Source: a virus
Lineage: Duplodnaviria; Heunggongvirae; Uroviricota; Caudoviricetes
Virus record (IMG/VR): IMGVR_UViG_3300032050_000069
Direction: 5' to 3' (one strand)
DNA: 64,000 nucleotides
A model generated the notes under the pieces. It ran no database searches, was not told the origin of the DNA, and saw only the letters and a program-made list of their open reading frames with translations. Shown here one piece after another: positions 2,977-61,555 of this stretch (the stretch's first letter is position 1; each line of letters begins with the position of its first letter). The position numbers and the translations under genes were made by a program.

Positions 2977-4236
2977 GTGGGGTTAGTAAATGAGGCTTTC
3001 TGCCTTGCTCCGTGGATACATACATATAATGGAACATTAGGAGAAAGGAGAGTATGTTGTATTTCATCATTAGAATTAGGAAAGGGTTCAACTCTTTCCG
3101 ATTCCTTTAATGGGGATGAAATAAGACAGCTGAGAAAGGATATGATTGCGGGAAAACAAATAGAATCCTGTAATCTATGTAATAACCAACCTTATGAAAA
3201 CACTTACAAATTTCATTTTAACGGTAATTACAAATACCTAATAGATGAAGTTATAAATAATACAAAAGAAGATGGGACTTATACAGGTCTTCCCATCACA
3301 TTTGATTACCGAAATGATTTATGCAATTTAAAATGTAGAATATGTGGTAGTTCTGCATCATCATCAATCAGAGCAGAATTCACTAAATTCGGTAATTATC
3401 AAAAGGAATCGGAATTACTTTCCGGCACCGAATCCCGCAATCTTTCGGAACTTCAATTAGAAGAAATGTTATTCCTAATTGAAAATACCGATATAAAAGA
3501 AATCTATTGGGCGGGAGGAGAACCTCTTTTCAATATTAATCACTATAAGGTTTTAAACCGTCTTATTGAATTAGGAAAAACCAATGTATTCTTACGATAC
3601 AATACCAATTTTACTAACATTACATTTAGGGAGTTTAATTTTTTAGATATAATTGCTCACTTTGATAGAGTTCACTTTTATTTTTCGCAAGATGGTATAG
3701 GTGAAACTGCTGAGTATTTGAGATATGGACAGAATTTTTCCAAATGGGATTTTAACATTCAGCAAGTAGTAAAAATAAAAAAACCAAAATGGGAATTTTA
3801 TGTTCATTCTGTAATGACAATTCTCACTCTTTTAGATGTTGAAAAGATCATTGAATATGTTCACGAATATGAAAACATAGGAATTAGTTTTTTCAAATGT
3901 TTTTCTGATGAATATAAAGATATACTTACACCTGATTTTTACCCAAAAGAAATTATTACAAAAATAATTGAGGAGAAAATCCAAATTATAGATAATCAAT
4001 ATAGTGGAAGTAGAAAATTAGTTGCAGTAAACTTTTTGGAAAATATGTTAAAAACATTTAATCAAATAGAAAGGAGTGATATACAAACTAAACTTTCATT
4101 TGGTTATATAGATGATTTGGATAAATTGAGACCATACTCAAGAACATTTTCTGATTTTATAAAAGAAGGTAATAATGAACTTTTCCAATATTTAAGTAAA
4201 AGAAAAGCCGAAATTTCAGATAATGATAATAACTGA
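2977..4236 (+). CDS. radical SAM enzyme with N-terminal Cys-rich extension (paralog of 37335..38573)
   Basis: CNLKCRICG is a CxxxCxxC radical-SAM cluster motif. YWAGGEPLF is the glycine-rich SAM-binding motif. N-terminal CLAPW...RRVCC block is shared with the 37335 ORF (CVMPF...KPCC). Confidence 0.6.
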   Translation: MGLVNEAFCLAPWIHTYNGTLGERRVCCISSLELGKGSTLSDSFNGDEIRQLRKDMIAGKQIESCNLCNNQPYENTYKFHFNGNYKYLIDEVINNTKEDGTYTGLPITFDYRNDLCNLKCRICGSSASSSIRAEFTKFGNYQKESELLSGTESRNLSELQLEEMLFLIENTDIKEIYWAGGEPLFNINHYKVLNRLIELGKTNVFLRYNTNFTNITFREFNFLDIIAHFDRVHFYFSQDGIGETAEYLRYGQNFSKWDFNIQQVVKIKKPKWEFYVHSVMTILTLLDVEKIIEYVHEYENIGISFFKCFSDEYKDILTPDFYPKEIITKIIEEKIQIIDNQYSGSRKLVAVNFLENMLKTFNQIERSDIQTKLSFGYIDDLDKLRPYSRTFSDFIKEGNNELFQYLSKRKAEISDNDNN

Positions 4237-4972
4237 TTTCCTTCATAATAATAAGAATCACAAAGAATTAAATCAACTTTGGAATAATTCCACACCATTT
4301 CCTAATTTAGAATTTAAGAATTTTTTGAGTGATGAAATGGTAGTTTCGATGAAAAACGAAATTACAGATTCTTATAGAAAGCATAACCATTTACTCAAAA
4401 ACTTTACCCGAAATGGTTCTCATATGGTTGAGTTATGTGAAGCGGGTGATGTTTGCCCAATAGCACATCAACTTATTGGGGATTTACATTCAAAGTATTT
4501 TATAGATTGGTTGGAAAGAGTTACGGGAATAGATGGATTGATACCCGATCCGTGGCTTGTAGGAGCATCTTATATGAGATGTTATAGAGGTGATTCATTG
4601 CAAGTCCATTCTGATTTTAATTGGAATGAAAAGCTAAAACTTCATAGAAAATTAACATTAGTAATTTACCTAAATCCTGAATGGGAAGAAAATTGGAATG
4701 GTGATATACAATTGTGGGATAAAGATAGAACACACTGCGTTCAAAAATACTATCCTACTAATGGAAACCTCGTTTTATGGGAGTATTCCAAATACGCTTT
4801 TCATGGACACCCACATCCACTAAATTGCCCAGAACACATAACAAGAGATGGAATTAGATTATTTTATTATATATCTGATGCTGAACACAAATCAGATGAC
4901 CCTCCACACCGTTCACTTTATTGGTTCGATGAAAAAACTAAAGAACCTTTCGATAAAAAGAAATCCTTTTAA
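4223..4972 (+). CDS. possible 2OG-Fe(II) oxygenase-like protein
   Basis: LQVHSDF (HxD) and downstream His residues spaced as in the double-stranded beta-helix facial triad. Weak motif-only call. Confidence 0.3.
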   Translation: MIITDFLHNNKNHKELNQLWNNSTPFPNLEFKNFLSDEMVVSMKNEITDSYRKHNHLLKNFTRNGSHMVELCEAGDVCPIAHQLIGDLHSKYFIDWLERVTGIDGLIPDPWLVGASYMRCYRGDSLQVHSDFNWNEKLKLHRKLTLVIYLNPEWEENWNGDIQLWDKDRTHCVQKYYPTNGNLVLWEYSKYAFHGHPHPLNCPEHITRDGIRLFYYISDAEHKSDDPPHRSLYWFDEKTKEPFDKKKSF

Positions 4973-5086
4973 TATTTATTTAAGATAAAGATTATATATT
5001 TATAGTTGTAAGAAATAAGTTTCCTTAAATAGTTTCATAAATTGTTATAGTAATCGGAAAAATAGGTTTCCATAACAAAAATTTAT

Positions 5087-5740
5087 ATGAAACAAAAGGT
5101 CTATTTATTAGTCGATACTCTATCGGATAAATTATTATCAGCATTTTTACGATTAGCCCTACTTTGGGTATTCGTTGCACTCTCAATTCAGGTTTTTTTC
5201 GTTAGTTTAACCTTTATGGGTAAGGATGATTTAATTCGAACTTACTCCAATTGGTTTACTCATACTTTCGATGGTAATTTCAAAAACTCACCCGGTAACA
5301 TTTGGTATAATGAAGATGAGCATATATGGGTTGAGAGCGTTACCAATAATGTTAAGATAGGAAATTTAGCCGGCAATAAAAATTTAGAGTTCGGTGTAAA
5401 GAATATATTAGAAGAGTATTTGCAAGAAAAAGGTTATAACCTATCCCCATCAGCAGTAAACAAATTACAGGTTCAAATTGTATTTTTAGATGTATTAACA
5501 ACTAAAAAGAACATTTCTGTTTTCCACTCCAATGAGGAAGAGGTTGTAATAAGATTAAAAGGTATTTTATTTAAAGATGGTAAGAAGGTAAAAGAAATAG
5601 TGGTTGAGGAATCATCTTCCGAAATTTCAATGTCCACCTTAATTGTAGATCAAGGTGGTAAATTTAACCAAACTTCTTTAAGCAATGCATTGAAGAAAGG
5701 TTGCGATAAACTTGTAACCAAATTATTTTCAACCAAATAA
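5087..5740 (+). CDS. membrane-anchored hypothetical protein
   Basis: 217-aa ORF with one N-terminal TM segment (LALLWVFVALSIQVFFVSL). Confidence 0.3.
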   Translation: MKQKVYLLVDTLSDKLLSAFLRLALLWVFVALSIQVFFVSLTFMGKDDLIRTYSNWFTHTFDGNFKNSPGNIWYNEDEHIWVESVTNNVKIGNLAGNKNLEFGVKNILEEYLQEKGYNLSPSAVNKLQVQIVFLDVLTTKKNISVFHSNEEEVVIRLKGILFKDGKKVKEIVVEESSSEISMSTLIVDQGGKFNQTSLSNALKKGCDKLVTKLFSTK

Positions 5741-32498: not shown

Positions 32499-32527
32499 GG
32501 GGGGTAGAAATACCCCCTTTTTTATTT
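32499..32527 (+). terminator. rho-independent terminator
   Basis: gggggta-gaaa-taccccc hairpin plus T7. Confidence 0.6.
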
Positions 32528-42609: not shown

Positions 42610-43348
42610 CTCAAAAGAAATAGTCTTTATAGGAGATAGTTTCACTTGGGGACAGGGCCTATATTTAGACTATTGGAAAGAAAATAGACCAGAACTATTT
42701 GAAAAGTTTTATGCTAATACAATAGAAAATGAAACACACTTACAGTGGATTGATCAGCAAGAATTTATTGGAAAAGAAGAAATGATTATTAAAGATAATT
42801 TATCATTTACCAATAAAGTAGGTGAATCGTTGGGTAGAAAAGTATATAAGAAAAAATATAATGGTGGGAGTATAACATCGAATAGACAGCTTTTAGAAAA
42901 CTTTTATAAATTAGAATCTGAAAAAAGAGATGTTATTTTAATTTTCCAATTTACATCTTTGGGGAGAGAGGATTTTGGTATAATTACTGATGAAGAATTC
43001 AGTAGGTATAATTTACTAATACATCGGCCTGATTCTGTTGTAAGAGAAATATTAAAAGATAGAATATACTCAATTTATAAATCCATAGATTCAATTATTG
43101 ATAATTTAGAAACTGAATTGGGTTGGAGATGCTACTATTTGGATTGGTTAGGAGATTTCTCTGAATTTGATGAAAAAAATAGATTTATTAAAATAAATGA
43201 TAATACATCCTTTTTTAATTTGGTTTTAAACAATCCAATAAAAATTGAATACAAAGATAAAATTTTCTATGATTATCATTTAAATAGAAAAGGAAATATA
43301 ATACTCGCGGAATCTATCTTAAAAAAAATAAATTTGGAAAATTCATAA
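42563..43348 (+). CDS. SGNH/GDSL-like hydrolase paralog (tandem duplicate, overlaps previous gene by 47 nt in another frame)
   Basis: KEIVFIGDSFTWGQGLYL. Own start codon upstream of the GDS block. Confidence 0.4.
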   Translation: MHNIYYQLQLSNTSDNSKEIVFIGDSFTWGQGLYLDYWKENRPELFEKFYANTIENETHLQWIDQQEFIGKEEMIIKDNLSFTNKVGESLGRKVYKKKYNGGSITSNRQLLENFYKLESEKRDVILIFQFTSLGREDFGIITDEEFSRYNLLIHRPDSVVREILKDRIYSIYKSIDSIIDNLETELGWRCYYLDWLGDFSEFDEKNRFIKINDNTSFFNLVLNNPIKIEYKDKIFYDYHLNRKGNIILAESILKKINLENS

Positions 43349-43369
43349 TTATTTTGTATATTTGAATAA

Positions 43370-43702
43370 ATGTTTTTTATTATGAAAGAATGGATAAGTA
43401 AATACCAAAAGGCGATAGTTGGAACTGGTGCAGTATCAGTTTTATTAATTTGTTATTTTCAACAACAACAAATGGCCAAATTACGAAGTGAATTAAAAGA
43501 GCTACGATATCTTAATGGGGGTGATATAGTAAAGGGAAGATATATCGATTCATTGCAGAATGTAACTGATAGTTTAAGTGGTGATAATTTCCATTTAAAC
43601 ACTATAATTTTTAGATATGAATTGACTTTGGAGAATCTTAAAGAGGAGAACCCAAATGCCGCCAAAGAATTTGAAAACTTTTTTAACACACAAACAGAAT
43701 AG
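43370..43702 (+). CDS. membrane-anchored hypothetical protein
   Basis: TM segment AIVGTGAVSVLLICYF. Confidence 0.3.
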   Translation: MFFIMKEWISKYQKAIVGTGAVSVLLICYFQQQQMAKLRSELKELRYLNGGDIVKGRYIDSLQNVTDSLSGDNFHLNTIIFRYELTLENLKEENPNAAKEFENFFNTQTE

Positions 43703-54624: not shown

Positions 54625-55028
54625 AAAAATTATTAGTAGTGGCTTTGGTACTCGGAATAAGTATCAATGCGAAAGCGCAGGAGGTATTTGCTTCTGCAAC
54701 AAACAAAGCGGTAGATGGTTACCTAACTTTGGGTTACATTAAAAATGGTTGGGGAGTTTTTATCGGAAGTAAATACAACGATAATAACCTTATATCACCA
54801 AAAAGTGGAACGATTTCCAACCAAATGAAATACGGTGTGATTAAAACTATCGCACAAGATAAATGGATGGCGGGAGCAGGTGTTCAACCGACATCAGATG
54901 GGCATAAGGTAAATGCCTTCATAGGGTATAACCCACTAAAATCTAAAGACCTAAAACTTTGGATGATAGGAAACATTGTAGGAGATACTTTTACACCTGG
55001 TTTAGGTTTATCTTACAAATTAAAATAA
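54621..55028 (+). CDS. small secreted outer-membrane beta-barrel-like protein
   Basis: ATG 54621 (MKKLLVVALVLGISINAKAQ signal peptide). Alternating amphipathic strands. C-terminus ...GLGLSYKLK. Confidence 0.35.
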   Translation: MKKLLVVALVLGISINAKAQEVFASATNKAVDGYLTLGYIKNGWGVFIGSKYNDNNLISPKSGTISNQMKYGVIKTIAQDKWMAGAGVQPTSDGHKVNAFIGYNPLKSKDLKLWMIGNIVGDTFTPGLGLSYKLK

Positions 55029-55075
55029 AAAAGCTTGGAAGTTTGGAAAAACTTTCTTATATTTGAAGAATAATA
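55028..55075 (+). promoter_or_regulatory. promoter cassette copy 1 (GCTTGGAA ... TTCTTATATTTG)
   Basis: First of four about 45-nt cassettes repeated at 55246-55293, 55400-55437, 55497-55537. Confidence 0.45.
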
Positions 55076-55245
55076 AAATAAGTTCTTTAAAATAGCAGGC
55101 GGGAGGTGAGGTATCTCGTTGGTCTCATAAGCCAAATTAACTAGGTTCGATTCCTAGGCGTTGCAACAAATCTACACTACTAGATTTTTGTGAGAGTAGT
55201 ATTCAGACGGTATCCTTAACAGGGCTTGGATGAGGTTCACAAAAA
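55076..55245 (+). ncRNA. small RNA 1 with isolated tRNA-like T-arm
   Basis: CTAGG-TTCGATT-CCTAG T-arm-like hairpin, but no foldable acceptor/anticodon arms. Downstream ACTACT...AGTAGT hairpin. Lies between promoter cassettes 1 and 2. Confidence 0.3.
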
Positions 55246-55278
55246 AAATTACAAAAATGCTTGAAACTTTGAAAAAAC

Positions 55279-55291
55279 TTCCGTATATTTG
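55279..55291 (+). promoter_or_regulatory. class-I promoter motif TTCCGTATATTTG (cassette copy 2)
   Basis: Preceded by ATGCTTGAAACTTTG -33-like element. Confidence 0.45.
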
Positions 55292-55307
55292 TAATAACAA
55301 AATGAGA

Positions 55308-55400
55308 TAGTGGTTGAAGCCAACATCTAATAAAACCGAATGTGTAACTACCCGGCGCGTGGTAGGATAAAGCCGGACACCACTACTTCATTTTGTTAAA
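55308..55400 (+). ncRNA. small structured RNA 2
   Basis: Nested hairpins: AGTGGT...ACCACT, GTTG-aagc-CAAC, CTACC-cggcgcgt-GGTAG. Ends in a T-rich stretch. No ORF. Confidence 0.35.
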
Positions 55401-55424
55401 AAAGATTTGGAAATACGAAAAAAG

Positions 55425-55437
55425 TTTCGTATATTTG
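55425..55437 (+). promoter_or_regulatory. class-I promoter motif TTTCGTATATTTG (cassette copy 3)
   Basis: Preceded by GATTTGGAAATACG. Confidence 0.45.
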
Positions 55438-55449
55438 TTAAAGTTTGAA

Positions 55450-55500
55450 ACTTATAGGTGATGAAAGATACTCGGTTTCAAATGGAAAAAAAAGTTGTTA
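55450..55500 (+). ncRNA. short hairpin RNA 3
   Basis: TTTGAAAC ... GTTTCAAA 8-bp stem followed by an A-rich tail. Confidence 0.25.
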
Positions 55501-55524
55501 AAATGCTTGGAAATTAAAAAAAAC

Positions 55525-55537
55525 TTCCGTATATTTG
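55525..55537 (+). promoter_or_regulatory. class-I promoter motif TTCCGTATATTTG (cassette copy 4)
   Basis: Preceded by ATGCTTGGAAATT. Drives the large structured region. Confidence 0.45.
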
Positions 55538-55559
55538 TAACAACAAAGAAAAGTTCTTT

Positions 55560-56790
55560 AAATTATTGAAACTAATTTCTATATAGTAACTTTGTGTTAC
55601 ATAATAGAGTGGCCGCATATGGTCGTTAAATAAACTTCGAAAGAAGGATAAAGTGAATCGGTTTGGTTTAATCGATTTGCGGCTCCTCCCCCGTAAGGGA
55701 GATGAGCTCGAGTATGCAAGTGAGGTATCACAAATGCTTAGTATCTGAGGGTAACACTTTAGGAGAGGAGTAGAGGTGACTGGGCAAGTGTAGATTGTTC
55801 AGTTGAGGTAGGAATACCAATAAGAATAACTCATAGAATTAATGCAAGAAGTAAAGACTTAATCTCTCTTTATCATTGCGTGATTCAATACCAAAGTTAT
55901 CTTAAAATCAAATTAGGGAAACCTTTTGAGATAAGATAGTGTACAGGTGGTGCTGTTACCATCCTTTTATAGAGTGTACCAACACCTATAAATGAAGATG
56001 ACTTAAAGTATGACGATAGGGATATCGTATCGGGTAGTAAAGTATTCCGTTGTTCAAAAGATAACGGAGCTTAAGGCAAACCACTACCTGAAACCATCTA
56101 CAAACCAAACTCATTTTTACTTCGGTGTAAAAACTATAAATAAAAATAAGAAAAAGAGTTTGCCAGTTACATCCGAAAGGTGTCTACATAGTAGTGAGTT
56201 GTTCACTGCCACAGACCTCCTCAAGGGGAATGTGATTCATTTGAAAGGTTTCTAACACCGCAAGTGTGAATCTGCTCGGCAGAGTAGAAGAAAATGAGTA
56301 TGATGAGAGTAAGATGTAACTCTAAGATTGGTTGGCTATACCAACCGACATTGAATTGGTACTTCTCAAAAGGAAGTGGAAACGAAAGGAAACAAATAAT
56401 CTTTCAAAAGCTGGTTCACAATATGGAGTATTCTCATCCTTATTTTATTATCATAATGGTTAATGTTGGTTCGATTCCAATGATGATAGCTTCGTAGTGG
56501 TTTCCGGCAGAAAGTTAGATGTATCTTCTAGACAACTGAAAGTTCCACTTTAATAAAAAATGAAAAAATGTATGATGGTATGGTTTTCCGTAGGGGATTT
56601 TCGCCTTAAACAATCTCAACAAAGCGAATTTAATTGATGGTAAAAACGGCTGTAGCTAGGCCTTTTGAAAGAACCACCCTACAAATCTTTCATTTTTATG
56701 AGTAACTTGTCGAGGCGGGTATTAACCAGAGCATGACTTGGATGGAGTATTTTGAAGACCGGTTACTTATTTTTTAGCTAAATTGATTTA
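55560..56790 (+). ncRNA. large GC-enriched structured non-coding RNA candidate (about 1.2 kb)
   Basis: No credible ORF. The 81-aa and 67-aa ORFs inside have no start context and arise because local GC is much higher than the flanks. Dense local stems: CTCCC-ccgtaa-GGGAG, GGTAGT...TCCGTT-gttcaaaagat-AACGGA...ACTACC, GGTTGG-ctata-CCAACC. Sits directly upstream of the tRNA array and directly downstream of a promoter cassette. Confidence 0.4.
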
Positions 56791-57016
56791 AAAAGAAATA
56801 GTGTTATACTTATATTAGAAGAAAATGAAAACTCTTAACTTACATACAGATTATCAACTGCCTACACAGAGATGTGAATGGACGGGGATTAGTATGTTTA
56901 GTGCGATAGAGAATCCGTCATTCTTGAATTTAGGCAAGGTGGATTATATTAGCACGAATAAGTTAGAGGATACCGATGTGGGATAAAATATAGATTTTTG
57001 AACAATATTAGAAGAA

Positions 57017-57047
57017 CCCTCTAACTGAAAAAGTTAGGGGGTTTTTT
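57017..57047 (+). terminator. rho-independent terminator ending the large ncRNA transcription unit
   Basis: ccctctaac-tgaaaaa-gttaggggg hairpin plus T6. Confidence 0.6.
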
Positions 57048-57054
57048 AGTTTAT

Positions 57055-57126
57055 GTTGGTGTGGCGCAGTGGTAGCGCAGTAGACTGTTAATCTATTGGT
57101 CGTAGGTTCGAATCCTACCATCAACG
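57055..57126 (+). tRNA. tRNA-Asn (anticodon GTT)
   Basis: Cloverleaf folded by hand: acceptor gttggtg/catcaac, D GCGC-agtggta-GCGC, anticodon stem gtaga/tctat loop ctGTTaa, T gtagg-ttcgaat-cctac. Confidence 0.7.
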
Positions 57127-57157
57127 CAAGAAAGGTTCTTTGACATTGTGGGAAAAT

Positions 57158-57231
57158 AGAAGATTAGCTCAGTTGGTTAGAGCATTTGGTTTACATCCAA
57201 AGGGTCATAGGTTCGAATCCTATATCTTCTA
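57158..57231 (+). tRNA. tRNA-Val (anticodon TAC)
   Basis: Acceptor agaagat/atcttct, anticodon stem tttgg/ccaaa loop ttTACat, T atagg-ttcgaat-cctat. Confidence 0.7.
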
Positions 57232-57239
57232 CAATTTAT

Positions 57240-57321
57240 GCCTGTATCGCATAGTGGCAATTGCTGGAGACTGTAAATCTCCTCTCTTCGGAGTTCGGTG
57301 GTTCGAGTCCATCTGCAGGCA
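57240..57321 (+). tRNA. tRNA-Tyr (anticodon GTA), type II
   Basis: Acceptor gcctgta/tgcaggc, anticodon stem ggaga/tctcc loop ctGTAaa, long variable arm ctc-ttcg-gag, T ggtgg-ttcgagt-ccatc. Confidence 0.65.
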
Positions 57322-57326
57322 CAATT

Positions 57327-57399
57327 GGAGCTTTCGTATAGCTGGTGCGTACGTCCGCCTGAAGAGCGGAAGGATGCGGTTCGATTCCTCAAGGCTCCA
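57327..57399 (+). tRNA. tRNA-Phe (anticodon GAA)
   Basis: Acceptor ggagctt/aggctcc, anticodon stem tccgc/gcgga loop ctGAAga, T-loop ttcgatt. Confidence 0.65.
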
Positions 57400-57406
57400 C
57401 ACAATG

Positions 57407-57481
57407 AACTCGTAGCTCAGTTGGTTAGAGCTTCTCACTTTTAATGAGAAAGTCAATGGTTCGAGTCCATTCGGGTTCACA
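57407..57481 (+). tRNA. tRNA-Lys (anticodon TTT)
   Basis: Acceptor gaactcg/cgggttc, D tagctcagttggttagagc, anticodon stem tctca/tgaga loop ctTTTaa, T aatgg-ttcgagt-ccatt. Confidence 0.7.
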
Positions 57482-57539
57482 AAATAGTTTACTTCGGCAA
57501 CGTTCTATACAAAAATCGGAGCCGGCCATATAGATGTAG

Positions 57540-57615
57540 AGGAGGCAGGTTTATCTCGCCACTTTTGGGAAGTGGAACACGTTGGTTCGAATCCAACCAT
57601 CTATACAAAATTGGA
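57540..57615 (+). tRNA. tRNA-Pro (anticodon TGG)
   Basis: Acceptor atagatg/catctat, anticodon stem ccact/agtgg loop ttTGGga, T gttgg-ttcgaat-ccaac. Enlarged D-loop. Confidence 0.55.
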
Positions 57616-57621
57616 ATATAA

Positions 57622-57695
57622 CTCAATTGGTTAGAGTGTCATCCTGATACGGTGAAAGTTGAAAGTTCGAGTCTTTCTATTCCAACAAATAAGGT
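57622..57695 (+). tRNA. tRNA-Ile (anticodon GAT)
   Basis: Acceptor tggaata/tattcca, anticodon stem tcatc/ggtga loop ctGATac, T gaaag-ttcgagt-ctttc. Confidence 0.65.
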
Positions 57696-57776
57696 AATCG
57701 TTCCCAGAGTTGGTGTGGCCACATCCGGACTCAAAAAAAGTAAAGTTACAGATGGATGCGTAACGCCTTATTAACT

Positions 57777-57848
57777 ATCTCCTTGGTGCAATGGCTAGCA
57801 TACCGGTCTCCAAAACCGTTGATAAAAGTTCGAATCTTTTAGGGGGTG
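57777..57848 (+). tRNA. tRNA-Trp (anticodon CCA)
   Basis: Acceptor atctcct/agggggt (two G-U), D gtgc-aatggcta-gcat, anticodon loop ctCCAaa, T aaaag-ttcgaat-ctttt. Confidence 0.55.
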
Positions 57849-58051
57849 CTAAATGAATAAAACTATGAAAATAAACTTTGATTTAAAAAACAATTATCCA
57901 AGTATAGAATTTTGCTACAACAATAAATGTGTTATTATAAGGTATTGGGGTGGATTAAAATTTGATAAAGTTGTTATTTACGGCGGTGAATAATATAAAT
58001 GTAAAACTATGAAACAATTATTTGACAAGCATTAGTTAAACCTAATGCAAA

Positions 58052-58243
58052 ATGAAAGAAGAAAGAGTAAAACAAATGAATCAAATCTACAACTATTGTA
58101 TGATTTGTAACAAACGAAATGGAAGTTGGTATTATGATTGTCATCCATCATCGTTCAGAGCAAAAAGACATGGTAGTGGTAAGGTTGTAAGAGTAAGAGA
58201 GTGTAGAAGTTGGAAACACAGCCGAAAGACTCAATGGAAATAA
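58052..58243 (+). CDS. small basic Cys/His-rich protein (possible Zn ribbon) embedded in the tRNA array
   Basis: 63 aa. CMICNKRNGSWYYDCH ... CRSWKH. Confidence 0.3.
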   Translation: MKEERVKQMNQIYNYCMICNKRNGSWYYDCHPSSFRAKRHGSGKVVRVRECRSWKHSRKTQWK

Positions 58244-58247
58244 CGAT

Positions 58248-58319
58248 GGCTCTTTGGTGTAACGGATAGCACACAACACTACGGATGTTGGAGTAAGGGT
58301 TCGAATCCTTTAGGGGCTA
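58248..58319 (+). tRNA. tRNA-Arg (anticodon ACG)
   Basis: Anticodon stem caaca/tgttg loop ctACGga, T aaggg-ttcgaat-ccttt, acceptor ggctctt/aggggct with G-U pairs. Confidence 0.6.
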
Positions 58320-58325
58320 CAATAG

Positions 58326-58396
58326 GGTGGATTGTCCGAGAGGCGAGGAGGTGGTCTGCAAAACCATTCACATTGGTTCAAATCCAATATCCACCT
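58326..58396 (+). tRNA. tRNA-Cys (anticodon GCA)
   Basis: Acceptor ggtggat/atccacc, anticodon stem gtggt/accat loop ctGCAaa, T attgg-ttcaaat-ccaat. Confidence 0.6.
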
Positions 58397-58401
58397 CAAA
58401 C

Positions 58402-58471
58402 TGCGTGGCTTAGTGGAAAAGAGTTATCTCTCATAAGGATGACCAATTGAGTTCAAACCTCAAACACGCAA
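58402..58471 (+). tRNA. tRNA-Met-like (anticodon CAT), atypical D-arm
   Basis: Acceptor tgcgtgg/acacgca (one mismatch), anticodon stem tatct/ggatg (two G-U) loop ctCATaa, T ttgag-ttcaaac-ctcaa. Could be elongator Met, initiator, or Ile2. Confidence 0.45.
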
Positions 58472-58479
58472 CTTAATAT

Positions 58480-58551
58480 GGTGTTTATTGTGTAAGGGTA
58501 GCACGACAGATTGTGGTTCTGTTAGTATGGGTTCGAATCCCATTATTCACC
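58480..58551 (+). tRNA. tRNA-His (anticodon GTG) with extra 5' G(-1)
   Basis: Anticodon stem acaga/tctgt loop ttGTGgt, T atggg-ttcgaat-cccat, discriminator C and an additional 5' G consistent with His identity. Acceptor has two T-T mismatches. Confidence 0.5.
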
Positions 58552-58616
58552 CCCAACCCCGAGTTCTGGAGCTGGTATCTCCTCTTACCCGAATTGAGAT
58601 TAAAAACTACCAAAAT

Positions 58617-58702
58617 AGAGAGTTACCCAAGTTGGTGAAGGGGCCTGTTTGCTAAACAGGTAGGATGTAAAAGTCGCAAGAGTTCGAACCTCTTACTCTC
58701 TA
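58617..58702 (+). tRNA. tRNA-Ser (anticodon GCT), type II
   Basis: Acceptor agagagt/actctct, anticodon stem cctgt/acagg loop ttGCTaa, about 17-nt variable arm, T aagag-ttcgaac-ctctt. Confidence 0.6.
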
Positions 58703-58710
58703 CTCAAAAT

Positions 58711-58785
58711 GCCCGTATGGCGGAATTGGCATACGCAATGGTCTTAGAAGCCATCCAATTGAAGGTTCGAATCCTTCTATGGGCA
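58711..58785 (+). tRNA. tRNA with anticodon TAG (Leu decoding) but type-I (short variable arm) architecture
   Basis: Acceptor gcccgta/tatgggc, anticodon stem atggt/gccat loop ctTAGaa, variable region only 6 nt, T gaagg-ttcgaat-ccttc. Confidence 0.5.
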
Positions 58786-58806
58786 CAAAACTAAAAAAGT
58801 AATAAT

Positions 58807-59262
58807 ATGGAATACAAACGGCTATACGATGGAGAAAAAGTTAGTTTGATTGATTATCTAAATGATTATCTTCAAACGAATAATGATGTAGATATACTTA
58901 TCGGATGTGATTCACAAAACTATGTTGATAAGACAATATATGCCATTGTAGTTGCCTTATATCATAGAGGTAAAGGTGCGCATGTTCTTTATAGAAGATG
59001 GAATACACAAAGAGAAAGAGTAAGGGCAACCAGATTATTAAATGAAGTTTGGTATGCTATTGAAGTTGCTGAAAGTATTAAAAATGCAGGATTACCGAAG
59101 GTTAAATGGATTGATATTGATTTGAATCCTGATCCTCGATATAAATCAAACGAAGTGTTCAGACAAGCAGTTGGTATGGTGGAAGGAATGGGGTATGCGG
59201 TTAGATATAAAACATTAGGCCCAATTGCTACATACGCTGCTGACCATATCGTAAAGGGTTAA
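58807..59262 (+). CDS. hypothetical protein
   Basis: 151-aa ORF between tRNA sub-clusters. Confidence 0.3.
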   Translation: MEYKRLYDGEKVSLIDYLNDYLQTNNDVDILIGCDSQNYVDKTIYAIVVALYHRGKGAHVLYRRWNTQRERVRATRLLNEVWYAIEVAESIKNAGLPKVKWIDIDLNPDPRYKSNEVFRQAVGMVEGMGYAVRYKTLGPIATYAADHIVKG

Positions 59263-59288
59263 ACTTTTTTTGGATATATCAGATATTT

Positions 59289-59300
59289 TTCGTATATTTG
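59289..59300 (+). promoter_or_regulatory. class-I promoter motif TTCGTATATTTG
   Basis: 6 nt upstream of ATG 59307 (possibly leaderless or near-leaderless). Confidence 0.45.
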
Positions 59301-59306
59301 TAAACG

Positions 59307-59729
59307 ATGAAGATAATCAATTGGGATAAGTTAAGGTATAAGTTTATTATATTAGCAGGTATGGATTTGGCTATTGATACAACATATACCACCGAAGATG
59401 AATTGGGTAAAACTACCTATTGCTTTACTATGTGTGATAGTGATTCGGTTGGGGAAACTTTTATAGAAGTGTTTCTTAAAGAAGGTGAGTTTGATGAATT
59501 TTTAATGAGTGTTAATTTACCTCAACAACAAATCACTCCGAATATAAAAAGAGTATTTAGAAGAAAAGACCTTTTAGATATAAATGAATTTATGAAACAA
59601 ATGGGAAGCGAATTAGTTAAAAATAGTATGGTAAATAGTTATTTAAATTTTTTAAGTGGTCTTAAACAAACTAAATTAAAAGCATCTAATAATACATTTG
59701 CATCCCATTCAATAAATTTACCATTTTAA
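59307..59729 (+). CDS. hypothetical protein
   Basis: 140-aa ORF. Confidence 0.3.
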   Translation: MKIINWDKLRYKFIILAGMDLAIDTTYTTEDELGKTTYCFTMCDSDSVGETFIEVFLKEGEFDEFLMSVNLPQQQITPNIKRVFRRKDLLDINEFMKQMGSELVKNSMVNSYLNFLSGLKQTKLKASNNTFASHSINLPF

Positions 59730-59730
59730 T

Positions 59731-59802
59731 GCTCGGTTGGACTAGGGGTTAGGTCACATCCCTTTCACGGATGTAGCACGGGTTCGAATCCCGTACCGAG
59801 TA
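59731..59802 (+). tRNA. tRNA-Glu (anticodon TTC)
   Basis: Acceptor gctcggt/accgagt, anticodon stem catcc/ggatg loop ctTTCac, T acggg-ttcgaat-cccgt. Confidence 0.65.
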
Positions 59803-59810
59803 CATAATAG

Positions 59811-59884
59811 GCCTCCGTAGCTCAGTTGGCCAGAGCTCCTGATTTGTAATCAGGTTGTCGTTGGTTCGAATCCGACCGGAGGCT
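59811..59884 (+). tRNA. tRNA-Thr (anticodon TGT)
   Basis: Acceptor gcctccg/cggaggc perfect, D gctc-agttggcca-gagc, anticodon stem cctga/tcagg loop ttTGTaa. Confidence 0.7.
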
Positions 59885-59889
59885 CAAAA

Positions 59890-59961
59890 GGTCTATTAGT
59901 GAAGTAGTTATCATATCACACTGTCACTGTGAAGTAAAGGGAGCGTAACCCTTATAGACCG
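59890..59961 (+). tRNA. tRNA-Asp-like (anticodon GTC) with non-canonical T-loop AGCGTAA
   Basis: Acceptor ggtctat/atagacc perfect, anticodon stem tcaca/tgtga loop ctGTCac. T-stem aaggg/ccctt but loop agcgtaa lacks the T54-Psi55-C56 consensus. Confidence 0.45.
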
Positions 59962-59965
59962 CAAT

Positions 59966-60039
<74 letters not shown>

Positions 60040-60053
60040 CAAACAAATAAAAT

Positions 60054-60509
60054 ATGAAAATAACAATTACGAAATTATTGATTTTGTTTATCATAACAAT
60101 TGCCTTTATTCCACATAATAATGAAGTGGTAAAAAGTGAAGAGCAAATTGTAGATGACATAATTGAAAGGAAAAGACCAGATTATCATTTGGTAACGGCG
60201 ACGACATATTCAATTACCGAAGAAGAAACTGATTCAACTCCATTAATTACCGCAAGTGGTTACAAATTGGATAGTATAAATCCAAAGAAACAAAAGGTAA
60301 TAGCAGTTAGTAGAGACCTTAAACGAAAGTTAAAATTTGGGGAAAAAGTAAGAATTAAAGGAGCAGGTAATTTAGATGGTATTTACTATGTAAGGGATTT
60401 GATGAATAAACGATTCCGAAATAAGATAGATATACTTATTAATCCTGATGAAGATGGGAATAAGTTTACGAAAGTAAAATTGTATGCTGTAAATAAAATT
60501 TTAAAATAG
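60054..60509 (+). CDS. secreted or membrane-anchored hypothetical protein
   Basis: Hydrophobic N-terminus LLILFIITIAFIP. 151 aa. Confidence 0.3.
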   Translation: MKITITKLLILFIITIAFIPHNNEVVKSEEQIVDDIIERKRPDYHLVTATTYSITEEETDSTPLITASGYKLDSINPKKQKVIAVSRDLKRKLKFGEKVRIKGAGNLDGIYYVRDLMNKRFRNKIDILINPDEDGNKFTKVKLYAVNKILK

Positions 60510-60529
60510 CTTGTTTTCTTTCAATCGTT

Positions 60530-60541
60530 TTCGTACATTTG
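60530..60541 (+). promoter_or_regulatory. class-I promoter motif variant TTCGTACATTTG
   Basis: 11 nt upstream of tRNA-Leu(TAA). Confidence 0.4.
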
Positions 60542-60552
60542 ATTTAAATAAT

Positions 60553-60636
60553 GCCGGAGTGTTGGAATGGTAGACAAGATTGACTTAAAATCAATTGAGC
60601 TGAAAGCTCGTGTGGGTTCGAGTCCCACCTCTGGTA
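60553..60636 (+). tRNA. tRNA-Leu (anticodon TAA), type II
   Basis: Acceptor gccggag/ctctggt, anticodon stem attga/tcaat loop ctTAAaa, variable arm gagc-tgaaa-gctc, T gtggg-ttcgagt-cccac. Confidence 0.65.
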
Positions 60637-60648
60637 CGTGAATTTTAA

Positions 60649-60722
60649 GGGGGATTAGCTCAGTTGGCTAGAGCGTTTGATTTGCATTCAAAAGGCCACA
60701 GGTTCGACTCCTGTATTCTCCA
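60649..60722 (+). tRNA. tRNA-Ala (anticodon TGC)
   Basis: Acceptor gggggat/attctcc (G-U pairs), anticodon stem tttga/tcaaa loop ttTGCat, T acagg-ttcgact-cctgt. Confidence 0.65.
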
Positions 60723-60737
60723 CCAAAATAAAACAAT

Positions 60738-60929
60738 ATGAAAAGATTTACAATTACAGGCGTAAGAACAATCGATGAGTATGTTACTTACACCGTTGAA
60801 GCAGAAACCGAAGATGATGCAATTGAATTGGTAGAGAGTGGTGAGATTGAAGATAATGGTGATTTCTGGCAAAAGGAAACATCAGGTGGTGAGGATTTCA
60901 CTATAACTGAAGTAGAAGATATTGATTAA
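60738..60929 (+). CDS. small acidic hypothetical protein
   Basis: 63-aa ORF, highly acidic C-terminus. Confidence 0.3.
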   Translation: MKRFTITGVRTIDEYVTYTVEAETEDDAIELVESGEIEDNGDFWQKETSGGEDFTITEVEDID

Positions 60930-60937
60930 AGATATAT

Positions 60938-61056
60938 GCCGGTGTGGCGGAATGAATGGGTTTGAATTCGAATAGAAACCATTAGACGTCCTGAATTCTA
61001 GATAGGGGGTGTATCCGAAATGGACATCGTATAGGTAACCAATCCTTTCACCGGCA
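60938..61056 (+). ncRNA. unknown structured small RNA (about 119 nt) closed by a tRNA-like acceptor stem
   Basis: Perfect 7-bp closing stem gccggtg/caccggc followed by a discriminator-like A. Internal hairpin aatgGTTTgaattcgaatagAAACcatt. Long-range gacgtcc/ggacatc stem. No anticodon or T-arm could be folded. Confidence 0.35.
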
Positions 61057-61115
61057 CCTTTATTTATCGTTGAAAGAAAAGATAATTCATTTTATCATCA
61101 GATTAAACGATGTTA

Positions 61116-61189
61116 GGGCTTGTAGCTCATTCGGTTAGAGCAACGCACTCATAATGCGGAGGTAATAGGTTCGATTCCTATCTGGCCCA
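61116..61189 (+). tRNA. tRNA-Met (anticodon CAT), second copy (initiator or elongator or Ile2 unresolved)
   Basis: Acceptor gggcttg/ctggccc, D tagctcattcggttagagca, anticodon loop ctCATaa, T atagg-ttcgatt-cctat. Confidence 0.6.
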
Positions 61190-61203
61190 CCAAACAAACA
61201 AAA

Positions 61204-61275
61204 GCGGATGTCGTATAATGGTTATTACTCCATCCTTCCAAGTTGGAGACGTAGGTTCGATTCCTATCATCCGCT
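61204..61275 (+). tRNA. tRNA-Gly (anticodon TCC)
   Basis: Acceptor gcggatg/catccgc perfect, anticodon stem ccatc/gttgg (one T-T) loop ctTCCaa, T gtagg-ttcgatt-cctat. Confidence 0.55.
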
Positions 61276-61410
61276 CAAGTGGGCCATTGTGGATAGGCCA
61301 GAAGAAAAATAGATGTTTTTCGTTCACAGAAACTCAAGTACCCATACCGCTAACGATGGGCTAAGTAAGATACAATTCCGTACTGCGGGGAGTAGAATGC
61401 TTGAGATTAT
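61276..61410 (+). ncRNA. structured small RNA candidate between tRNA-Gly and tRNA-Gln
   Basis: GGCC-attgtggata-GGCC hairpin. Then a roughly 90-nt element closed by ctcaag/cttgag containing hairpins cccat-accgctaacg-atggg and tact-gcgggg-agta. Confidence 0.3.
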
Positions 61411-61481
61411 TGCCCGATGGTGTAGCGGTAGCACAAATGTTTTTGGTGCATTTAGGGTTGGTTCGAATCCAGCTCGGGTAA
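61411..61481 (+). tRNA. tRNA-Gln (anticodon TTG)
   Basis: Acceptor tgcccga/tcgggta (U1-A72 as in bacterial tRNA-Gln), D gtgt-agcggta-gcac, anticodon stem aatgt/gcatt loop ttTTGgt, T gttgg-ttcgaat-ccagc. Confidence 0.6.
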
Positions 61482-61555
61482 CATTTTTATAAACGATTGA
61501 TTTCCAATGGCTTATTTTCTCCCTTTTTCTTGGAAAATTCAACAATTTTTACTAT

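Follow-up and report, generated by a model that had tools for sequence, protein, structure and literature searches.

In a 64,000-nt stretch of DNA from a Caudoviricetes phage (IMG/VR record IMGVR_UViG_3300032050_000069), which we refer to as the window, four tandem promoter-like cassettes (P1–P4) lie upstream of a GOLLD RNA, a member of a family that is among the largest non-coding RNAs of bacteria and phages and that assembles into a 14-mer nanocage (PMC12286853). We favor, with a probability of roughly 60%, the reading that these redundant tandem promoters feed one long untranslated operon in which boxA makes RNA polymerase Rho-resistant, as upstream of host rRNA genes. The operon would comprise, in order, P1, boxA, a tRNA(CAU) gene, and an 80-nt structured element; P2 and a 104-nt RNA; P3 and a leader hairpin; and P4, boxA, GOLLD, and probably the first block of a tRNA array. 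Transcripts initiated at the upstream promoters would run through the downstream ones, processing would free the tRNA, the small structured RNAs, and GOLLD, and the transcripts from P2 and P3 would be stabilized by 5'-terminal hairpins that start at their predicted +1.

Read-through is favored because a scan of the + strand found no terminator-like site between the cassettes and because the leader hairpin, boxA, and GOLLD are contiguous in related phages. It is also favored because a boxA-like element follows P1, where it would make little sense for a 70-nt tRNA transcript alone, and because the first 13 tRNA genes are not preceded by a promoter motif, no TAnnTTTG promoter being present between positions 55587 and 59270.

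Tandem cassettes and a phage-wide promoter class

An earlier description made from the letters of this DNA, which we call the sequence-only reading, had proposed four tandem host-sigma-like promoter cassettes, near-identical over 45 nt, the fourth of which drives a large structured region. The four direct-repeat cassettes are real and lie where that reading put them (Table 1), but its estimate of their likeness was slightly generous, as they share 78–88% identity across 40 nt. P2 and P4 are 85% identical across 61 nt, and this longer similarity is confined to that pair. The proposed promoter type was borne out in all four cassettes as the sigma-A form of Bacteroidota, which is kept in relatives, and the large structured region headed by the fourth cassette is GOLLD (Rfam RF02032, 303.4 bits against a threshold of 150, E = 1.3e-86, model positions 1–416 of 416).

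Every cassette contains TTG-N20-TAnnTTTG, and the −7 box reads TATATTTG in four of four. TAnnTTTG is the sigma-A −7 box, which genome-wide start-site sequencing in Flavobacterium psychrophilum located at −12 to −5 (PMC9723704); the +1 positions in Table 1 are predicted from this location of the box. As in sigma-A promoters of Bacteroidota, both boxes are present in the four cassettes, the spacing is 20 nt, and the orientation is that of the genes. The cassettes fit Bacteroidota sigma-A-type promoters with a −33 TTG and a −7 TAnnTTTG, and they are presumably active. The motif TTG-N20-TAnnTTTG occurs 11 times in the window compared with 2.26 ± 1.57 times in dinucleotide shuffles, none of 100 shuffles reaching 11, and the Poisson probability of four sites within 510 nt of one strand is ~3e-10. 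Ten of the 11 sites are on the + strand, which is also the strand of all long open reading frames (ORFs) and all tRNA genes. Each of the four cassettes has a spacer of exactly 20 nt, as does each of the six + strand sites that lie outside the battery; five of these six lie 1–20 nt before ORF start codons, the sixth lies 7 nt before a tRNA-Leu gene, and all six have the common core TTGG-N15-TTCGTATATTTG.

Because the outside sites sit just before ORFs or a tRNA gene, we take the cassette to be one instance of a phage-wide promoter class and not a mobile repeat. The sequence-only reading had raised the prospect that the cassettes are degenerate copies of a mobile repeat present throughout the genome; this is half borne out: copies of the core motif are spread over the window, but they are promoter-like sites directly upstream of an ORF or tRNA gene. 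Outside the cluster, this core is all that recurs in the window, which is unlike a MITE (miniature inverted-repeat transposable element); no terminal inverted repeats or target duplications were noted around the cassette copies, and an exact-sequence search of viral contigs with the cassette gave no matches. At two of the promoter-like sites (43334–43372 and 59270–59309), the ORF start codon is 1–2 nt past the predicted transcription start, and the corresponding mRNAs would therefore be leaderless. A fifth match near the cluster, TTG-N18-TAACTTTG at ~55559–55594, is not kept in relatives and was excluded as a promoter.

A metagenome scan for the locus recovered 14 loci (designated here, like other loci, by L numbers), comprising ten relatives with 76–83% identity and four near-identical contigs. 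In the ten relatives, the promoter boxes TTG(G) and TATATTTG are kept and the spacer bases vary; spacer length is fixed at 20 nt, or 19 nt in some P3 copies. TTGGAAG and TATATTTG are invariant in P1, as is TATATTTG in P2, and the last G of the P3 box is replaced by A in L180, L174, and L177. All ten relatives carry P1, boxA, tRNA(CAU), P2, and the 104-nt RNA, and in all ten P3, the hairpin, boxA, and GOLLD are contiguous without a fourth promoter. P4 is confined to the window and to four contigs with 99.5–100% identity to it (L168, L170, L171, and L175). Because of this restriction and its resemblance to P2, P4 is best read as a recent, lineage-specific local duplicate of the P2 cassette that was inserted between the hairpin and boxA, the inserted block spanning ~55485–55552.

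Two to four tandem alike cassettes are also found upstream of GOLLD in L001, L002, L004, L006, L008, L009, L011, L014, L022, and L029. The cassettes of these other GOLLD phages are nearly identical within a genome but differ between genomes, which points to repeated local duplication. Promoter decay was considered for the P3 boxes ending in A and rejected, because TATATTTA is the box of every promoter in other GOLLD phages. In L003, L005, L007, and L010, every promoter, including that of GOLLD, has the form TTGG-N15-TTCGTATATTTA with a final A for G, and one TTCGTATATTTA-type site is present in the window at 32526. This final-A group hints at a different host clade or an altered sigma specificity.

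Table 1. Coordinates of predicted promoters, boxA-like elements, RNAs, and downstream signals in the window
Feature	Position	Strand	Details
P1 cassette	55027..55066	+	−33 TTG 55035–55037; −7 box TATATTTG 55058–55065; predicted +1 ~55070
boxA-like element 1	55082..55091	+	GTTCTTTAAA; P1 leader; kept after P1 in relatives
Atypical tRNA(CAU)	55095..55165	+	71-nt cloverleaf; no CCA encoded
80-nt structured element	55166..55245	+	hairpin 55169–55186, U-run, long hairpin 55187–55243
P2 cassette	55253..55292	+	TTG 55261–55263; −7 box 55284–55291; predicted +1 ~55296
P2 RNA	55295..55398	+	104 nt; 20-bp closing stem begins at predicted +1
P3 cassette	55399..55438	+	TTG 55407–55409; −7 box 55430–55437; predicted +1 ~55442
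P3 leader hairpin	55443..55483	+	41 nt; conserved loop UAUAGGUGAUGAAAGAUACUC
P4 cassette	55499..55538	+	TTG 55507–55509; −7 box 55530–55537; predicted +1 ~55542
boxA-like element 2	55553..55562	+	GOLLD leader; extended motif GTTCTTTAAATTATTGAAAC
GOLLD RNA	55600..56440	+	5' domain from ~55600; conserved 3' domain 56030–56440
Terminator-like hairpin	57011..57047	+	16 pairs then T-run; ends 8 nt before first tRNA
tRNA array	57055..61482	+	22 tRNA genes (ARAGORN, Rfam); three ORFs between; internal promoters 59270, 60511

boxA-like elements and host rRNA leaders

A boxA-like sequence, GTTCTTTRAA, starts 12–13 nt past the predicted +1 of P1 and P4. In rRNA operons, boxA recruits NusB/NusE and other Nus factors, so that RNA polymerase is not stopped by Rho on ribosome-free RNA. 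Among ten related loci that were retrieved by the GOLLD 5' motif, one of them a 635-kb phage genome, the boxA-like motif is found 77–109 nt upstream of that motif in all ten, and it also follows other promoters in these loci that precede tRNA genes. In 95 Bacteroidota 16S rRNA upstream regions, which served as the host comparison set, GYTCTTTRA occurs in 50 compared with one in the antisense orientation, with a peak at −75 to −200. The extended motif of the host leaders is RAGTTCTTTRAAnnATTGAA, and at best 18 of the 22 positions of the extended phage motif (AGTTCTTTAAATTATTGAA or AAGTTCTTTAAATTATTGAAAC) agree with a host leader. The GTTCTTTRAA elements thus resemble boxA, and Nus-dependent antitermination would be their predicted role.

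The same comparison set was used for the promoters. At least one TTG-N18-21-TAnnTTTG site is present in 88 of the 95 host leaders and two or three in 45, whereas four of the 95 have one in antisense; spacings between host promoters are mostly 95–150 nt. With the spacer limited to 19–21 nt, 158 host rRNA promoter sites were collected, of which 72, 61, and 25 have spacers of 19, 20, and 21 nt, respectively. The four cassettes share with host rRNA promoters an upstream flank rich in A and a spacer that contains an A-tract. Scored with a position weight matrix (PWM) of the host profile, the cassettes reach −14 to +4 and come nearer to it than the six + strand sites elsewhere in the window, which reach −12 to −24, compared with −32 ± 10 for random window positions. 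Two features are specific to the phage class relative to host rRNA promoters, namely the fixed YCG just before the −7 box (TTCGTATATTTG) and an A-rich initially transcribed region, TAAYAACAAA.

The locus is laid out like an rRNA control region in that two to four tandem promoters are spaced ~100–150 nt apart, a boxA-like element follows soon after the start, and a long structured untranslated RNA and tRNAs lie downstream, as in rRNA operons. In E. coli rrn leaders, boxB precedes boxA, and a small hairpin just before boxA in L001, L004, and L008 is similar to it. Unlike an rRNA operon, the locus is phage-borne, heads GOLLD and tRNAs, and has two boxA copies (after P1 and P4); conserved RNAs including a tRNA gene lie between its promoters, the promoter discriminator region differs, and Nus factor binding at the phage boxA-like element is putative.

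Known systems match the locus in part. boxA upstream of CRISPR arrays has been described in Proteobacteria, Bacteroidetes, and Cyanobacteria (Stringer 2020, PMC7665894), and it is established, for Bacteroidetes too, that boxA shields such long untranslated arrays from Rho (PMC7665894). Like that boxA, which prevents premature Rho termination, the phage element heads a long non-coding array; unlike it, its cargo is GOLLD and tRNAs, it is phage-borne, and it is combined with tandem promoters. GOLLD loci in phages and prophages adjoin tRNA arrays (Rfam RF02032; Weinberg 2009; Kretsch 2025, PMC12286853), and like GOLLD env-38, which is described as "downstream of Met-tRNA," the window GOLLD lies downstream of a tRNA(CAU) gene and adjoins a 22-tRNA array. 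The small structured RNAs encoded with the tRNA genes in the window also invite comparison with phage T4, which differs in host phylum and promoter type and is likened here by description only. The T4 tRNA cluster includes small stable RNAs (species 1 and 2) that are processed from a common transcript.

RNAs encoded between the promoters

The sequence-only reading had placed a short structured RNA after each of the first three cassettes: a lone T-arm that could serve as a processing signal for an upstream RNA, a ~95-nt multi-hairpin RNA, and a 50-nt hairpin. These regions do encode structured RNAs that are conserved in relatives, but the assignments change. The supposed T-arm is part of a complete 71-nt tRNA(CAU) cloverleaf followed by the 80-nt element, so that an atypical tRNA takes the place of the processing signal; the RNA after P2 is structured but is 104 nt long and closed by a 20-bp stem; and the hairpin is 41 nt and forms the 5' leader of the GOLLD transcript in ten relatives, so one cassette for one small RNA is not the ancestral logic of the locus.

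The tRNA(CAU) gene matches the Rfam tRNA model (RF00005) with 31.3 bits compared with a threshold of 29, and its minimum-energy fold is a cloverleaf. Its acceptor stem is not the regular 7-bp helix, because the 5' strand of 6 nt faces a 3' strand of 7 nt, resulting in a 1-nt bulge that is conserved in 14 of 14 sequences. These sequences were collected with a search pattern derived from three copies of the gene, which matched 39 viral loci with 13 further distinct sequences. In the alignment of the 14 distinct homologs, which come from 40 loci, 98.6% of cells pair, and eight pairs have changed on both sides compared with at most three in slid controls; the 7-nt anticodon loop CUCAUAA is invariant, though it was imposed by the search pattern. 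ARAGORN makes no tRNA(CAU) call in the window, L008, L012, L014, L017, or L027, and calls a tRNA-Met at the homologous gene only in L013 and L021; it misses most copies because of the bulged acceptor stem. We file the cloverleaf, on the strength of its predicted fold and covariation, as an atypical tRNA or tRNA-like RNA. The place after P1 is occupied in close relatives by a canonical initiator-type tRNA-Met (C1xA72, A11:U24) but in the window and L173 by the bulged allele. The bulged allele is flanked by homing-endonuclease genes elsewhere (GIY-YIG/NUMOD3 in L006 and L022, HNH in the L017 and L012 groups), and in L173 an ORF with similar repeats adjoins it. The bulged gene may be an endonuclease-resistant allele that would have spread by homing.

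The 80-nt element that follows the tRNA has 94% column identity among relatives that are 76–83% identical overall. It has one compensatory pair, an A-U to U-A change in L172, and is cleanly missing in L169 and L177. A search of 55166–55560 against Rfam at E ≤ 1 gave no match, the weak tRNA hit being the only match of a small element. Predicted duplexes of GOLLD with the 80-nt element or with the single-stranded region of the P2 RNA are no better than shuffles.

The P2 RNA folds with z = −3.55, none of 200 shuffles being as stable. Its first ~50 nt are nearly invariant in relatives, its inner hairpin is swapped for unrelated hairpins, and in the consensus of eight sequences the C-to-U changes opposite G keep pairing only in the + strand RNA. 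A covariance model of the P2 RNA matches 15 loci of the window's lineage with 116–133 bits and none of 47 other phage loci (L001–L047). Between the GOLLD promoter and boxA, other phages (L006, L009, L014, L021, and L027) have a conserved leader hairpin in whose internal loop two UUGUAAAG motifs face each other; a U-rich run comes after the hairpin, which may act ahead of boxA as an attenuator or as a site of protein binding. The P2 RNA is similar to this hairpin in topology and in its first 15 nt, and homology between the two is unproven. In L006/L009 and L022, whose cassettes differ, a ~65-nt end-paired RNA with the sequence UUGACRAC...CCGAARUCAAAUCUCAYUAUCGG...GUUGUCAA lies between tRNA(CAU) and the GOLLD promoter, and L011 has a further RNA of ~170 nt between the same two features.

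The P3 leader hairpin is unremarkable by energy alone (z = −1.65); its stem has undergone two compensatory changes (A-U to G-C in the L179 group, U-A to G-C in L180), and its immediate neighbors in relatives are P3 on one side and boxA-GOLLD on the other. Two further roles were considered and rejected. The hairpin loop UUAUAGGUG (55452–55460) is perfectly complementary to GOLLD 55985–55993 (−18.8 kcal/mol, z = −2.3), but the loop changes in L172 and L180 are uncompensated at the GOLLD site, which does not fit a kissing interaction. An ORF (MKDTR...) runs from the hairpin loop to the TAA of boxA, and its frame is kept in relatives, with a 3-nt indel in L180; codons 2–4 are without synonymous change and later codons change amino acids freely, and this pattern therefore indicates constraint on the RNA and not a leader peptide.

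Weighing the operon reading and the downstream array

Several observations weigh against the operon reading. Promoter activity, start sites, 3' ends, read-through, Nus-dependent antitermination, and processing are all deduced from sequence, as is the probable host phylum, Bacteroidota, for which the promoter and boxA motifs are the sole basis. The exact boxA pattern is present in just 50 of the 95 host leaders, the PWM scores of the cassettes fall below the host distribution of 26 ± 9, which makes the resemblance a modest one, and the initially transcribed region is A-rich in the cassettes but a C-rich CACCC in host rRNA promoters. A strong terminator-like hairpin (57011–57047) separates GOLLD from the first tRNA gene, and the interval from this hairpin to that gene is free of promoter motifs. 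Weak terminators could also be formed by the U-rich 3' strand of the P2 closing stem and by the hairpin with its U-run at 55169–55191. Finally, host inter-promoter spacers tend to open with small hairpins (mean z −0.96), but the P2 RNA (z ~−3.1) folds better than most of them, only 7% of 68 being below −3. This unusual fold, together with the nearly invariant 50-nt stretch, suggests that the P2 RNA has a function of its own and is not a mere spacer.

The last point leads to the explanation that competes best, although we consider it unlikely: the locus would be a battery of independent short units in which each cassette makes its own stable small RNA and only P4 makes GOLLD. The closing stems of the P2 RNA and of the P3 hairpin begin at the predicted +1 and stop shortly before the next cassette, so that the ends are paired in the manner of stable small RNAs. 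This explanation is also favored by the conservation of the P2 RNA (~50 near-invariant nt, substitutions whose G-U pairing works on one strand only, and replacement of the inner hairpin) and by its fold, which is in the top 7% relative to host spacers. In other phages a promoter is followed at the corresponding place by an end-paired hairpin of 35–75 nt, and one such RNA is common to L006, L009, and L022 despite their differing promoters. However, none of the three units is followed by a terminator-like site in the scan, an A-run and not a U-run coming after each, and the hairpin belongs to the GOLLD transcript as its own leader in ten relatives. With P4 a recent duplication, "one promoter, one RNA" is not a conserved arrangement, and host rRNA inter-promoter spacers, too, open with small hairpins. 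The two explanations are also compatible, as processed read-through transcripts could give identical small RNAs.

It is far less probable that the repeats are binding sites of a non-promoter kind, namely iterons of a replication origin, targets of a phage regulator, or leftovers of a mobile repeat. In favor of this, the copies form direct repeats within AT-rich non-coding DNA, and they are more alike within than between genomes, which local duplication or a binding protein particular to each genome would produce; in addition, the phage-specific TTCG that related phages share just before the −7 box is absent from host rRNA promoters. Against such sites stand the irregular spacing of the cassettes (226, 146, and 100 nt), the orientation of all four copies with the genes, the lack of noted terminal inverted repeats or target duplications around them, the coincidence of the conserved positions with exactly the −33 and −7 elements at fixed spacing, and the presence of the motif elsewhere 1–20 nt before ORF starts and 7 nt before a tRNA gene. 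The proposal of the sequence-only reading that clustered promoters, multiplied by genome replication, act as decoys or a sigma sponge that titrates host RNA polymerase holoenzyme could draw on the very high density of four consensus promoters in 510 bp and on the variation in cassette number from two to four between relatives, but we found no support for it and regard it as the least credible of all, given that the downstream tRNA, hairpin, P2 RNA, and GOLLD are conserved with covariation, that boxA implies productive elongation, that there is no 6S-like RNA in 55166–55560 (Rfam, E ≤ 1) and no large central bubble of the 6S RNA or sponge kind in the P2 RNA fold, and that stacking is explained without decoys or sponges because host rRNA operons have a like layout of tandem promoters and boxA, which serves high expression. 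Neither the iteron nor the decoy explanation has support, since selection acts on the downstream products and conservation falls on exactly the promoter boxes.

Returning to the operon reading, several of its components are already known, namely GOLLD, its linkage to tRNA arrays, the Bacteroidota promoter consensus, tandem rRNA promoters, and boxA antitermination. In a search of the GOLLD literature, we found no paper linking GOLLD with antitermination or describing GOLLD promoters. By this search, neither the rrn-like head of the GOLLD/tRNA operon nor its companion RNAs seem to have been described. The promoter stack in itself is ordinary biology; the locus indicates the probable mode of GOLLD expression in one group of large environmental phages, which would borrow a host solution for transcribing a long untranslated RNA past Rho. 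Its practical use is threefold: it points to Bacteroidota as the likely host phylum, it provides defined promoter and leader sequences with which GOLLD could be expressed in a tractable Flavobacterium or Bacteroides, and it yields a short list of co-transcribed RNAs as candidate GOLLD partners. A more far-reaching version, which we think doubtful, is that large Bacteroidota phages have copied the host rRNA-operon expression program, with its stacked rrn-like promoters and Nus/boxA antitermination, for the GOLLD nanocage RNA and a full tRNA set, forming a "pseudo-ribosomal" transcript. If this is true, the RNAs made along with GOLLD, from the bulged tRNA(CAU) and 80-nt element to the P2 RNA and leader hairpin, could be its dedicated partners (cargo, assembly cofactors, or regulators) and not leader debris.

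The 5' boundary of GOLLD was estimated from the 5' domain of env-38 and from similarity to L001; the env-38 5' domain is 420 nt (PMC12286853), which places the start near 55600. Between GOLLD and the terminator-like hairpin lies a 53-aa ORF (56825–56986) without a Pfam match. Of the three ORFs within the tRNA array, one (58807–59262) matches the Pfam RNaseH_like domain (PF04308, E = 2e-18) and the other two have no Pfam match, and a PHROGs scan of ten window proteins returned almost nothing recognizable. Just 3' of GOLLD, at 56448–56490, the window has only a T-arm and acceptor-like minihelix. In L001, long odd tRNA-like genes lie on both sides of GOLLD (3661–3750, 4857–4950, and 5036–5125), for some of which ARAGORN reports undetermined anticodons, and in L002 a full tRNA (4455–4527) lies just 3' of GOLLD.

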